This document shows, piece by piece, positions 7,808-10,726 of a stretch of DNA of 18,126 nt. Location of the stretch: IMG/VR virus record IMGVR_UViG_2671180699_000003; one strand, written 5' to 3'. Every line of letters starts with the position of its first letter. Position 1 is the stretch's first letter. Under the pieces are notes generated by a model. It was not told the origin of the DNA, did not search any database, and saw only the letters and a list, made by a program, of their open reading frames with translations. A program made the translations under genes and the position numbers. The stretch is from a virus (lineage: Duplodnaviria > Heunggongvirae > Uroviricota > Caudoviricetes).

Positions 7808-8800
7808 TCACCCCCTGAATCCTGCCGGGATCTGGCTGTAGTCCACGTTGTCGTAACTGGATTTGAAATATGGGTCTTCGCGTTTTTCTGTGTATGTGCT
7901 GACGGACGGCGATAAGCGCAGGGAAAGCTCATCCCATTTTTCCCGCAGCTTCGACGGGCTGAGCACGTTACGGCACCAGAACGGATCGCGGCTGACGCGG
8001 CTGTACATCTCGCAGATTTGTTTGTGAGTACGACCATCCTGCACACACATCAGGCGAATTTCGTTTGCCCAGGCTGTCCAGTTCGGTTCTTTGGGACGAA
8101 CCACCTCGCCGTCACATTCGGCGGCCTGCTCGTACAGGGCGATGATTTTTTTCCAGAGCCACTGTGCGCAGGTCAAATCATCCTGCGTTCCCCACTGGCG
8201 CTTTTTAGGGCTGAATACAACCGCATCAGGATGGCGAGTTAAAAACTCCTGTTCAGCCGTTTGCGTGTCCGGTTGCGAAGCGTCCGGACGAGAAGAGGTT
8301 TTATTCTCTGTAGTAATCTCTGTTGTATTCTCTGTAAGATCATTGGGCCATTTTGACCCGATGACAGCGTGTCGTTTTGAACCAATGGATCGTGTCATTT
8401 TGCGCCCATCCATCAGGTCACTTTGACCCGATGGAGAAGTGCATTTTGACCTGATGGATTCGTTCACTTTGACCTCTTCTAAAAGCTCACTTTCATAGTT
8501 GATCGTGTAGAAGTTGGTCATGTCACGCTTCGATTTATTGAGTTGCTCGCGACGCAAAACCCCAAGTGATTTCAGGCTTGCAAATGTGCGTTTCAGAGTG
8601 GACTCTGACCAGAACGGAAACTGCTCCAGCCACTGTTCTGTCGTGTTATAAACCCAGCGAATTCCGCCATGCTCAGTGCCTGAATTCGTTTCATTCAGCC
8701 AGTAATGAAGCTGCTGCAACACAATTGCCTCATTCAGACCAATACGGCATGCAAGATCACGATTTATCACAATGGGCTGGGATGTCATTAACAGGCTCAT
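7808..8800 (-). CDS. replication initiation protein (lambda O-like organizer with a conserved phage C-terminal domain), 330 aa
   Basis: N-terminal winged-helix replication-protein motif and a conserved phage C-terminal region (PFWCRNVLSPSKLREKWDELS). Iterons lie inside the coding sequence. GGAGGTG SD upstream. Confidence 0.7.
   Translation of the reverse strand: MSLLMTSQPIVINRDLACRIGLNEAIVLQQLHYWLNETNSGTEHGGIRWVYNTTEQWLEQFPFWSESTLKRTFASLKSLGVLRREQLNKSKRDMTNFYTINYESELLEEVKVNESIRSKCTSPSGQSDLMDGRKMTRSIGSKRHAVIGSKWPNDLTENTTEITTENKTSSRPDASQPDTQTAEQEFLTRHPDAVVFSPKKRQWGTQDDLTCAQWLWKKIIALYEQAAECDGEVVRPKEPNWTAWANEIRLMCVQDGRTHKQICEMYSRVSRDPFWCRNVLSPSKLREKWDELSLRLSPSVSTYTEKREDPYFKSSYDNVDYSQIPAGFRG
8349..8476. 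repeat. origin iterons: about five direct repeats CAYTTTGACCYGATGGA at 23-24 bp spacing
   Basis: Copies at 8349, 8373 (degenerate), 8419, 8442 and 8465 (partial), plus an inverted partial copy TCCATCAGGTCA at 8409-8420. They fall in the linker region of the O-like gene, as in lambda ori. Confidence 0.65.
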
Positions 8801-9021
8801 GCCGCACCTCCGAGATGCTTCATGTTTTTTCCGGAGCGAAAGGCTATAAGCGGCATACTGACGCGGTAATTACGGCCCAGCGGTTCACAAATCACCTTCT
8901 GACATTCACGGTCAACCAGGCTAACACGTAGAACATGCCCTGCAGGCGTGGTGTACCACTGACCGGGGCGAGGACAACGGAAAGTCTGATTGGTAAATCG
9001 TTTGAAAATATTCCGGATCAT
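8797..9021 (-). CDS. hypothetical protein, 74 aa
   Basis: AAGGGGG SD 5 nt upstream; ATGA overlaps with both neighbours. Confidence 0.4.
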   Translation of the reverse strand: MIRNIFKRFTNQTFRCPRPGQWYTTPAGHVLRVSLVDRECQKVICEPLGRNYRVSMPLIAFRSGKNMKHLGGAA

Positions 9022-10166
9022 TTGCGCCCCCTTACCTCTGAAGAGTTCAGCGACGAATGAATAAGACGGGCAAGAAATGCCGCATCGTTAATTCGGTCAT
9101 ACAGACTTACAGCCAGAGGTGATTCAGCTTTTTCCAGCATGGGATAAAGCTGCTGCAACCAGACCTGATGAATTGATGAAATGTAGGAATAGAGAACGCT
9201 GGCGTTATGTGCAACGTCGCTCGGTACAGCGGGCTTTGAAAGCTGTTTCTCCATCTGGTTAAAGGCATTGATGTATGCCTCTTTGAACTGGGCAGCACGT
9301 TTACCCGTGAAACCCATAGCAAGAAACGCAAAGCCGTCGCGGGTTATTTGATAGCAAGGTAGTTTGCGGCCTGTGCAATCGGTGTAATCACTCACCGAAA
9401 AATTGCGGGCAGTGAATGATGCGGAACATTCAAGCGTGCGGATCTTTTTCAGTACATCGTCATGACGTTTGGAGAAGAAGTTGGCAACAGCCAGGGATGA
9501 AGTAACAGCCTGACCATCAACGATGGCAATTTCAGGTTGAGTGAGGGTTGGGATCGTAGCCATGATGGCAGTCTCCGATAACAGTGAATTACCTTCACCA
9601 CCGGAAACGCCAATTTCGCTGGTGGTGAACTGAACGGGGTTGGCGTAACCGGCGTTATCGGAAACCGGCGCACCTTTCGGTGCCCCCGTCCAGCCCACCA
9701 TAATTTGGGTGTGCACAGACGCAGACGATAAAAAAGACGCTGGCGCGTCATATATCGCCGATAACATTTCCAGGACGCCAATCCCGACACCCGCTTTATA
9801 AGGTGCCTGAACAGTGTAACGTCCCGGAATGGCAGAATCAATGTGCTGGTGGTCCTTCACACTCAACAAAATCACGCCTGAATTTCCACAAAGGACTAAA
9901 GCACTCATGCGGGTAGTCTTTGCGAAGATAGATAACGCGCTGTGTTTCTGGCTCCCAACGAATAACATGGACATAAAGCCCTCTTCCGTCACGAAACCAG
10001 CGGTTAAGTTCCTGCACAACTCGCCCCCCACAGTCAGGTAAAGTTCTCTGTGGTTACTTACAGCCAGGTGATTTGGTAATCTGCATTCATGCCGTAACAA
10101 CAGGTGTTCAGCGACGCTGACCACCAGCTGTTGCGACAAACGGTTATTTGCCGTTAAACTGTTCAT
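9018..10166 (-). CDS. Rha-family phage regulatory protein with a ~200-aa N-terminal extension (382 aa; alternative internal start at 9563 gives 181 aa)
   Basis: Rha-like motifs QAVTSSLAVANFFSKRHDDVLKKIR and ITRDGFAFLAMGFTGKRAAQFKEAYINAF begin at residue ~202. The ATG at 9563 has a GGAGA SD, but the frame stays open upstream to an ATG at 10166 that overlaps the upstream stop (ATGA). Confidence 0.55.
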   Translation of the reverse strand: MNSLTANNRLSQQLVVSVAEHLLLRHECRLPNHLAVSNHRELYLTVGGELCRNLTAGFVTEEGFMSMLFVGSQKHSALSIFAKTTRMSALVLCGNSGVILLSVKDHQHIDSAIPGRYTVQAPYKAGVGIGVLEMLSAIYDAPASFLSSASVHTQIMVGWTGAPKGAPVSDNAGYANPVQFTTSEIGVSGGEGNSLLSETAIMATIPTLTQPEIAIVDGQAVTSSLAVANFFSKRHDDVLKKIRTLECSASFTARNFSVSDYTDCTGRKLPCYQITRDGFAFLAMGFTGKRAAQFKEAYINAFNQMEKQLSKPAVPSDVAHNASVLYSYISSIHQVWLQQLYPMLEKAESPLAVSLYDRINDAAFLARLIHSSLNSSEVRGRK

Positions 10167-10726
10167 GCGTTAGTTTCTCCACAGACACAAAACGCCACGA
10201 CGCCCGGAGCTGCACACTCGCGGGCGTCACTCTTTTCTGGAGCGCAAAAGATTTTGTAGACCAGTGCTGCATGCTCCTGGAGCTTCGAAATTGACAGATA
10301 CAACTCATCATTAATTGCTGTCTGCTCGTGTGGCTCCACTACCCCATCTTCGATTGCCGAACGAATCTGCTTTGAGTAACTCCCGATCTGTTCGATGACT
10401 TCCAGCAGGCGCTGGTTTATATCGGCGTTCTCTACTTCCTCAAGTTCAGGAAGCGATACAAACACCCCACCAGCAGACTGTGCGACAGCATCCGCAATGT
10501 AGTGAGTGCCAGCCGCGCGCTGTAAAATCATTGCCCATCCCAGCGGGAAAATCTGATCGCCATCTGCACGAAGGCGGTTGAATAAAGCGTTCTCTGTTAC
10601 ATCCAGCCACTCAGCAGCTTCAGCGTAACCTCCCGGCAACGCCGCGATAGTTTTTCTGACAGCTTTCACGTACCACTCAGGCTGTTTTTCTACTTTCCAG
10701 TGATGCTTACCCACGGTTAGCCTCAT
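10163..10726 (-). CDS. hypothetical regulator at the CII position (possibly YdaT-like), 187 aa
   Basis: First gene after cro. HTH-like segment GGYAEAAEWLDVTENALFNRLR followed by a predicted helical region. A GTG at 10714 with a GAGG SD is a possible alternative start. Confidence 0.35.
   Translation of the reverse strand: MRLTVGKHHWKVEKQPEWYVKAVRKTIAALPGGYAEAAEWLDVTENALFNRLRADGDQIFPLGWAMILQRAAGTHYIADAVAQSAGGVFVSLPELEEVENADINQRLLEVIEQIGSYSKQIRSAIEDGVVEPHEQTAINDELYLSISKLQEHAALVYKIFCAPEKSDARECAAPGVVAFCVCGETNA

Follow-up and report, generated by a model that had tools for sequence, protein, structure and literature searches.

A probable P4/P1-type antisense-RNA gate within the in-frame 5' extension of a Rha gene in an e14-like lambdoid prophage

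The IMG/VR virus record IMGVR_UViG_2671180699_000003, a stretch of 18,126 nucleotides (nt) hereafter referred to in its entirety as the window, belongs to an e14-like lambdoid prophage and spans its early operon, in which a LexA-type repressor gene on the plus strand is followed by a cro-like gene, ymfL, a long open reading frame (ORF), a 74-amino-acid (aa) gene, an O-like replication gene and a PerC-like gene, the early-operon genes being tightly coupled. The subject of this report is the long ORF, which the ORF listing of the window places at 9018..10166 on the minus strand (382 aa), and which consists of a gene for a Rha-family regulator preceded by an in-frame extension of 201 codons. Analysis of the features within that extension (Table 1) indicated, with a probability of approximately 0.78, that positions 9837-9564 constitute an antisense-RNA gate of the P4/P1 type, with ymfL on one side of it and the genes for Rha and replication on the other.

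Table 1. Coordinates of the features of the long ORF and its flanks in the window (SD, Shine-Dalgarno sequence; PGAP, Prokaryotic Genome Annotation Pipeline)
Feature	Position	Strand	Evidence or remark
ymfL-like (CII/CP76-type) gene	10163..10726	-	Pfam Phage_CP76 5.3e-15; NCBIfam YmfL equivalog 7.4e-50; PGAP 'ymfL' in relatives
Candidate SD GGAG for coupled initiation	10177..10180	-	10 nt upstream of ATG 10166; read from the sequence
Long open frame	9018..10166	-	ymfM-like segment, 'Ash'/eta-like read-through segment and Rha gene in a single phase
ymfM-like bridging ORF (first 50 codons), ymfL to DUF4222 gene	10018..10166	-	Start context as in K-12 ymfM
Inverted repeat CCACAG-N14-CTGTGG	10028..10053	-	~15 nt upstream of the DUF4222 start
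DUF4222 gene, 59 aa, GTG start	9838..10017	-	Frame differs from long ORF; Pfam PF13973, phrog_1343, PGAP in relatives
Putative sigma-70 promoter of leader RNA	9813..9841	-	-35 TTGATT 9841-9836, 17-nt spacer, -10 TACACT 9818-9813, start ~9806
IsrK/seqA-type leader RNA	9730..9806	-	Rfam RF01394, 61.5 bits vs gathering 50
C4 target box a1, TTGGCGT	9781-9775	-	Inside IsrK leader
C4 target box b1, GTTATCGG	9765-9758	-	Inside IsrK leader
Intrinsic terminator of IsrK-type RNA	stem 9749-9736, then U-run	-	Terminator scan
C4/CI-type antisense RNA	9618..9705	-	Rfam RF01695, 82.8 bits vs gathering 45
ATG-GTG at C4 5' end	9696..9701	-	In phase with long ORF; 46 codons ahead of ATG 9563, no intervening stop
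C4 specificity loop UCCGAUAAC	9662-9654	-	C4 RNA
C4 single-stranded element UACGCCAA	9647-9640	-	C4 RNA
Downstream C4 target a2, TTGGCGT	9613-9607	-	3' of C4
Downstream C4 target b2, GTTATCGGA	9582-9574	-	Overlaps SD GGAG 9576-9573 of ATG 9563
Rha-family regulator/antirepressor-like cargo, 181 aa	9018..9563	-	Pfam and TIGRFAM Rha; PHROG Rha-like and anti-repressor families

Rfam covariance models, run on the window at their gathering thresholds, located both an isrK and a C4 RNA inside the extension and on the long ORF's own strand, and the Rfam c4-a1b1 family additionally matched one relative. In P1, two elements of the C4 RNA pair with a1/b1 upstream and a2/b2 downstream, b2 lying on the ribosome-binding site of the first cargo gene, and allelic C4 loops give rise to the heteroimmunity of P1 and P7. 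The same scheme was found here, with a1/b1 at 9781-9758, a2/b2 at 9613-9574 and covarying alleles. Thus the window combines the C4 loop CCGATAAC with the box GTTATCGG in isrK and the box GTTATCGG-AG ahead of ATG 9563; strain GB089 combines the loop CCGTATGC with GCATACGG in isrK and GCATACGG-AG ahead of the ATG of its cargo, the loop and both boxes having switched together in a three-way change.

Extension of this comparison by means of a pattern scan of viral contigs, followed by allele analysis, yielded 66 distinct modules. At least 15 alleles of the C4 loop were recorded, most of them accompanied by exactly matching boxes in the upstream and downstream stretches examined, together with five alleles of the second single-stranded C4 element (ACGCCAA and others), again mostly with exact matches. 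In nearly all of the modules for which a b2 box was found, it began 35 nt past the 3' end of C4 and ended in the GGA of the SD, with the cargo ATG located 54 nt (53-55) past C4. The N-terminal sequence MAT(I/V)P was retained irrespective of whether the cargo was the 181-aa Rha protein, a 77-aa protein, a 120-aa Rha-like protein, a Kil/Icd-like protein of 64-65 aa or an 81-aa protein, and a mosaic joint was placed at ~9539.

Because the spacing of b2 and the SD, the loop-matched boxes and the MAT(I/V)P sequence are all maintained across different cargos, ATG 9563 is, as judged from these comparisons, a conserved start predicted to be under RNA control, the independently initiated product of which would be a 181-aa Rha protein. 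This ATG (9563-9561, codon 202) is the second in-frame ATG of the long ORF and has GGAG ahead of it at 9576-9573; all 82 of the close relatives considered encode a Rha protein of 181 aa. Pfam PF09669 matched residues 222-307 of the long ORF (1.7e-30; 105.8 bits against a cut-off of 29.9), and TIGR02681 matched residues 213-311 (103 bits against 45.95), equivalent to residues 12-110 of the 181-aa form. The domain is therefore N-terminal in the 181-aa form, where model position 5 falls on residue 12, but not in the 382-aa reading.

These data bear on an original prediction, made from the sequence alone, which had described a long frame whose first ATG overlaps the stop of the preceding gene, a second ATG with an SD just ahead of the Rha domain, and a domain that would normally be N-terminal. 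The overlap is present in the sequence as described: ATG 10166-10164 shares ATGA with the TGA stop (10165-10163) of the upstream ymfL-like gene 10163..10726, and the ...GCATGAACAGTTTAA junction at which ymfL stops and the long ORF starts is kept in the YmfL loci of other genera. The second ATG, with its GGAG, proved to be a genuine and conserved start, and the expected placement of the domain was borne out by the alignment of TIGR02681 model position 5 with residue 213, ~11 residues past M202; the length of the protein initiated at ATG 9563 required correction to 181 aa. Comparison with relatives also upheld the view that the long frame is real, and excluded error as its source.

Only one protein family, Phage_ASH (PF10554; 63.2 bits against a cut-off of 26), matched the extension in its own frame, and the match (residues 117-212, ~9818-9531) lies exactly on isrK plus C4. 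When 47 distinct close relatives were aligned and their variable columns assigned to positions 1/2/3 of the long ORF codons, the Rha gene (9563-9018) gave the coding pattern 32/32/80. The corresponding values were 13/11/8 for isrK, 7/6/7 for the isrK-C4 spacer, 14/14/18 for C4 and 12/11/11 for the stretch between C4 and the ATG, and 36 distinct C4 sequences from the wider survey gave 22/19/21. Among 36 distinct homologues, 95.6% of the pair cells of the Rfam helices of C4 were canonical, compared with 34-51% in shifted controls, and double-sided (compensatory) changes occurred in 17 of the 27 C4 pairs. Because variation is distributed evenly over the codon positions and the C4 helices covary, it was concluded that the 'Ash domain' evolves as a structured RNA and not as a protein; no constraint at the amino-acid level was apparent, conservation tracking instead the RNA helices and target boxes. 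Scoring single-base variants of the long frame as potential creators of stops was an uninformative test, since the Rha control 'failed' likewise, a result of diverged codons carrying several changes at once.

The first 116 codons of the long ORF correspond to the 112-aa ymfM of K-12, which also begins, ATGA-coupled, behind ymfL and lies in the same phase with respect to the DUF4222 ORF; phrog_1170, a further shared feature, matches codons 48-98. The DUF4222 gene that occupies most of this interval in another frame was confirmed by Pfam PF13973 (9.5e-14; 51.1 bits against a cut-off of 27) and by phrog_1343 (1.1e-36). When scored by its own codons, its variable columns among the 47 close relatives were distributed 2/2/10; when scored by those of the long ORF, 2/10/2. 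The gene is under purifying selection in its own frame. For the overlapping ymfM and DUF4222 ORFs, comparative analysis likewise placed the purifying-selection signal in the DUF4222 frame. The inverted repeat upstream of its start was kept in alignments of all three otherwise divergent sequence types found 3' of ymfL, and was present in E. coli, Citrobacter, Mangrovibacter, Erwinia and Scandinavium.

Among the close relatives, the columns of 10166-10018 varied 11/12/5 by codon position. In two more diverse YmfL groups the first 55 codons gave 20/18/32 and 15/19/34, an excess at the third position because of which this segment is probably translated in lineages of the Shigella, Citrobacter and Mangrovibacter type. 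The YmfL loci of these three genera contain an ATGA- or GTGA-coupled ORF of 108-134 codons that crosses DUF4222.

In K-12 itself the ymfM frame stops after 112 codons, unlike the long ORF of the window, and an Rfam search of the K-12 locus gave no isrK or C4 match, the isrK-C4-Rha module being missing there. The ymfM ORF of that locus (L003 3323-3681) holds 53 of the 59 codons of the conserved DUF4222 ORF in another frame. The paper that presented ymfM as a 'cell division inhibitor' cloned the whole ORF (bioRxiv 10.1101/2020.11.19.390815), and a term search of that preprint returned no frame-specific controls for ymfM. The filamentation phenotype could consequently be attributable to either the ymfM frame or the DUF4222 frame, given that the whole ORF was cloned and that the DUF4222 frame carries the selection signal.

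The continuity of the frame was assessed in the 82 close relatives, whose extensions fall into allele classes 83%, 91% and 99% identical. An extension of 201-202 open codons was present in 76 of them, the only common indel being one of 3 nt, and the frame was also open at other loci (387 codons in E. coli CFSAN027343; 383 in Citrobacter braakii). The phase of the long ORF was free of stops through isrK plus C4 in 62 of the 66 distinct modules, compared with 7/66 and 20/66 for the other two phases. The first ATG of the frame overlapped the stops of unrelated upstream genes, including YmfL, P4 ORF88/Vis (ATGATGATG), a DUF4222-like gene, a 181-aa protein, Rha paralogues and others. These comparative counts suggest that over the RNA genes selection acts on openness and not on the amino-acid sequence, and because of that difference the upstream 201 codons would most likely function through the act of translation itself.

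The closest parallel is the satellite phage P4, in which the ORF 8812..8168 crosses the seqA/isrK and CI/C4 RNAs and terminates in a 65-aa 'MATTLTPSHPEF...' protein; this ORF is eta, and its in-phase 65-aa tail is kil. Initiation at the MMM found at residues 16-18 would yield 197-199 aa, the published length of eta. In P4, as in the window, isrK/seqA precedes C4/CI on a common strand, and a long ORF runs from an ATGA overlap (with ORF88 in P4) through both RNAs and in phase into a short gene that starts 3' of the downstream target box, with Pfam Ash on the same stretch; the junctions themselves (..EAAIMATTLTP in P4, ..ETAIMATIPTL in the window) are homologous. The differences are that the cargo is a 181-aa Rha protein as opposed to the 65-aa Kil, and so not a Kil/Icd-type toxin (Kil/Icd-like cargos were found in other modules); that the module resides in a lambdoid e14-like prophage, equipped with a LexA-type repressor, and not in a satellite; and that 201 as opposed to ~133 codons lie upstream, in a frame that also crosses DUF4222 out of frame. 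For P4, a constitutive promoter is located within eta, early termination is due to CI and seqA, Kil is a truncated form with full-length Eta arising only from the upstream promoter, and eta is translationally coupled to an alpA homologue, its translation preventing termination (PMC10111431, summarising Forti et al. 1999, J Bacteriol 181:5225). Such prevention of (Rho-dependent) termination is known for P4 only.

The putative promoter of the leader RNA in the window, which was read by eye, has 8 of 12 consensus matches, with variation in 4 of its 31 columns. Its position is that of a TATAGT box in P4, likewise identified by eye, which precedes the isrK match there by 7 nt, and presumably that box is the constitutive promoter internal to eta.

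Equivalent features were evident in the isrK-orf45-anrP region of Gifsy-1, where orf45 overlies a C4-like RNA (STnc1160), is translated, is needed for translation of the antirepressor, and is conserved in nucleotide but not in amino-acid sequence (PMC4825925). Both loci have an IsrK RNA (with a terminator that is leaky in Gifsy-1) and an antirepressor-type cargo, and the ATG-GTG 9701-9696 of the window is the equivalent of the two in-frame starts of orf45 (PMC4825925). By way of difference, the stop of orf45 overlaps the start of anrP as AUGA, whereas the window has no stop between ATG 9701 and 9563, its leader running on into Rha. The profile of phrog_4908 begins at ATG 9701.

In a P1-like plasmid the start of icd lies 54 nt past C4, as does the cargo ATG in nearly all of the modules with a b2 box. 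The c4-icd-ant genes of the P1/P7 immI region were reportedly characterised by Citron and Schuster in 1990 and by Riedel et al. in 1993. The P1 arrangement differs from that of the window in that the frame through c4 is apparently closed ahead of icd, the cargo is Icd plus a KilAC-type Ant, and the host element is a plasmid prophage. On this basis the design found in the window is that of P4 eta/kil with seqA-CI-seqC, and is related to those of P1 immI and Gifsy-1 isrK-orf45-anrP; it differs in its lambdoid e14-like host, its Rha cargo, and its longer read-through frame, which crosses a second gene out of frame.

The anatomy of the gate is very probably as described, and the following mode of operation is proposed for it. 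The internal promoter would generate a leader RNA that ends at the IsrK terminator or else continues past it, the C4 RNA lying downstream of the terminator within the read-through transcript. The two single-stranded elements of C4 would then pair with a1/b1 in the leader and with a2/b2 downstream; since b2 covers the SD of ATG 9563, occupancy of that box is proposed to block translation of Rha and, through polarity, probably also transcription of the O-like gene, by analogy with P1 and P4. Transcripts from the internal promoter would thus remain untranslated, either ending at the IsrK terminator or being blocked by C4 at b2. On transcripts from the early promoter, an eta-type frame would come into play: ribosomes would pass from ymfL via the ATGA, cross DUF4222 out of frame, cross both RNAs, and enter Rha in phase, in so doing preventing formation of the IsrK terminator and of the C4 and target structures, and loading of Rho, such that Rha and the replication genes could be expressed. 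Transcription in the induced phage might in this way pass a gate that stays closed to transcripts of the internal promoter, and the 382-aa product would be a by-product of translation through it. We lean slightly towards such a translate-through function for the long frame.

More tentatively, and at rather less than even odds, e14-like lambdoid prophages may carry a P4-type gate between their cII-like and replication genes, in which a ymfL-coupled frame of 382 codons enables transcription from the early promoter to override the IsrK terminator and C4; in that case K-12 ymfM would be what survives of the 5' part of such a frame, or its phenotype would belong to DUF4222, and the unit could be chained into tandem C4-Rha arrays, most with different loops, each ATGA-coupled to the previous cargo.

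Several observations weigh against a translated-through gate. The consensus promoter scan returned nothing at threshold, TTGATT-17-TACACT falling below it, and the leader promoter is therefore one that we only infer. In the window type the first ~50 codons gave 7/15/9 (from few sequences) and, among close relatives, 11/12/5, in neither case with a coding signature, and ribosomes in the long frame would have to traverse the start of DUF4222, which would be awkward if both products were needed. In one relative (L013) the loss of 1 nt shortens the extension to 10 codons while Rha remains intact; eight modules with spacings of 53 or 55 nt have an open frame that is out of phase with the cargo by 1 nt; and in the P1-like plasmid the Ash pseudo-coding sequence ends 24 nt ahead of icd, in the same phase, with a stop apparently between the two. 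Because of the out-of-phase modules and this apparent stop, in-phase fusion to the cargo is dispensable. Part of the openness could have been inherited with the conserved RNA sequence as opposed to being selected.

Taken to its conclusion, this last point would make the open frame a passive by-product: the RNAs would be real, Rha would be made from 9563, and the 201 codons would be untranslated, their openness being ancestral and maintained by conservation of the RNAs. The absence of codon-position bias in the RNA part, the retention of cargo by frameshifted and out-of-phase relatives, the intrinsic terminator within the frame and the occupation of another frame by the DUF4222 gene would all be accommodated. 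We nevertheless consider it rather unlikely, given that openness spans poorly conserved stretches (83% of the columns vary in the spacer and 63% between C4 and the ATG, with an indel of 3 nt as the sole common one), that the frame reaches well past the RNAs in non-homologous upstream contexts, that an ATGA overlap with a real upstream gene recurs as its start, and that equivalent frames are reported to be translated in both P4 (eta; PMC10111431) and Gifsy-1 (orf45; PMC4825925).

The original prediction had itself offered two explanations, an unusual Rha protein with a novel N-terminal domain, and an accidental fusion through loss of a stop or a frameshift. A genuine two-domain protein, in which Ash or a novel folded domain is joined to Rha in the manner of the domain swapping of the 'Bro network', might be argued from the Phage_ASH match above cut-off, from phrog_821, which spans the extension plus Rha, from PGAP 'Rha family' proteins of 296 and 387 aa, and from the listing of Phage_ASH among the Bro-network domains (PMC10111431). 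The same source places C4 and isrK matches within 'Bro network' genes (PMC10111431). The supposed novel domain turned out, over codons 117-212, to be the known Phage_ASH, lying on two same-strand Rfam RNAs with uniform codon-position variation and covariation of the RNA type, its 'conserved residues' being RNA helices and target boxes; codons ~50-110 are the conserved DUF4222 gene in the wrong frame. Phage records annotate the same stretch as non-coding or as C4/isrK, and cargos begin at a conserved SD and ATG 3' of it, all of which renders a two-domain protein highly improbable. Fusion of genes in one genome, by sequencing error, recent stop loss or frameshift, has practically negligible probability: K-12 e14 does have a separate 112-aa ymfM from the same start, but the 201-202-codon extension recurs in 76/82 relatives, spread over several allele classes, and in further genera, which refutes a single-genome artefact or pseudogene. 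The in-phase layout is in fact the common one, and occurs also in P4 eta/kil. Relatives do carry separate genes in the interval (DUF4222, plus the 112-aa ymfM of K-12), and some homologues have stops or a 1-nt phase shift between extension and cargo, both being findings that the original prediction had named as evidence against itself. The preferred reading remains a P4/P1-type gate ahead of an independently initiated Rha gene.

Existing annotation of this stretch is inconsistent. PGAP starts Rha at M87 in some genomes (296 aa) and in another gives a protein of 387 aa, and with other cargos the stretch appears as an 'ash family protein' or as an 'Icd-like protein' (246 aa). In the P1-like plasmid a PGAP 'ash family protein' pseudo-coding sequence (2112-2225) lies on the C4 match (2108-2195) upstream of icd and ant, and the old 'cI gene product' coding sequence of P4 corresponds to Pfam Ash over the C4/CI match, with the isrK/seqA match just upstream and still inside eta, the longer frame. 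It is thus an RNA module whose translations make up the Ash family of Pfam, a number of PHROG families and PGAP gene models in their thousands. Families apparently built on such translations, or on over-extended ORFs, are phrog_821, phrog_3960, phrog_995, phrog_6928 ('transcriptional repressor'), phrog_4908 and Phage_ASH.

Sequence resembling at least part of the extension was present in 4295 of 5426 complete E. coli genomes, 976 of which hold most of it, and the isrK-C4 part matched 339 phage records, many of them of Shiga toxin (Stx)-converting phages. Because the RNA module is so widely annotated as protein, gene lengths, domain-architecture statistics and inferences of 'domain swapping' are affected. 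A P1/P4-type gate with many specificity alleles, placed ahead of antirepressor-like and replication genes in common lambdoid prophages, would also bear on prophage induction and on the cross-immunity of co-resident prophages.

Some prophages were found to contain tandem arrays of three isrK-C4-cargo modules. In one of these (L097) the C4 matches lie at 11108-11021, 10452-10365 and 9796-9709 on the minus strand and their loops differ; in another (L073) they lie at 648-735, 1508-1595 and 2356-2443, the second and third loops being identical. In both arrays a Rha paralogue, 120-187 aa long, lies behind every module, and the TGA of each of the first two cargos falls within an ATGA that could start the next read-through frame. 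The Rha gene of the third L073 module is ~94% identical in DNA to that of the window. In one viral contig (L124; C4 at 6782-6695, minus strand) the isrK/C4 read-through frame extends 496 codons upstream of C4, and starts 2 nt past the stop of a Rha/antirepressor-like gene.

An Rfam int-alpA RNA was recorded in two P4-like elements with an isrK-C4 module (L099, 7978-8039; L140, 8457-8525), which fits a satellite-type context. In the window itself, a tRNA-Gly(CCC) gene at 835-908 on the plus strand, close to one end, may represent the attachment site of the prophage.

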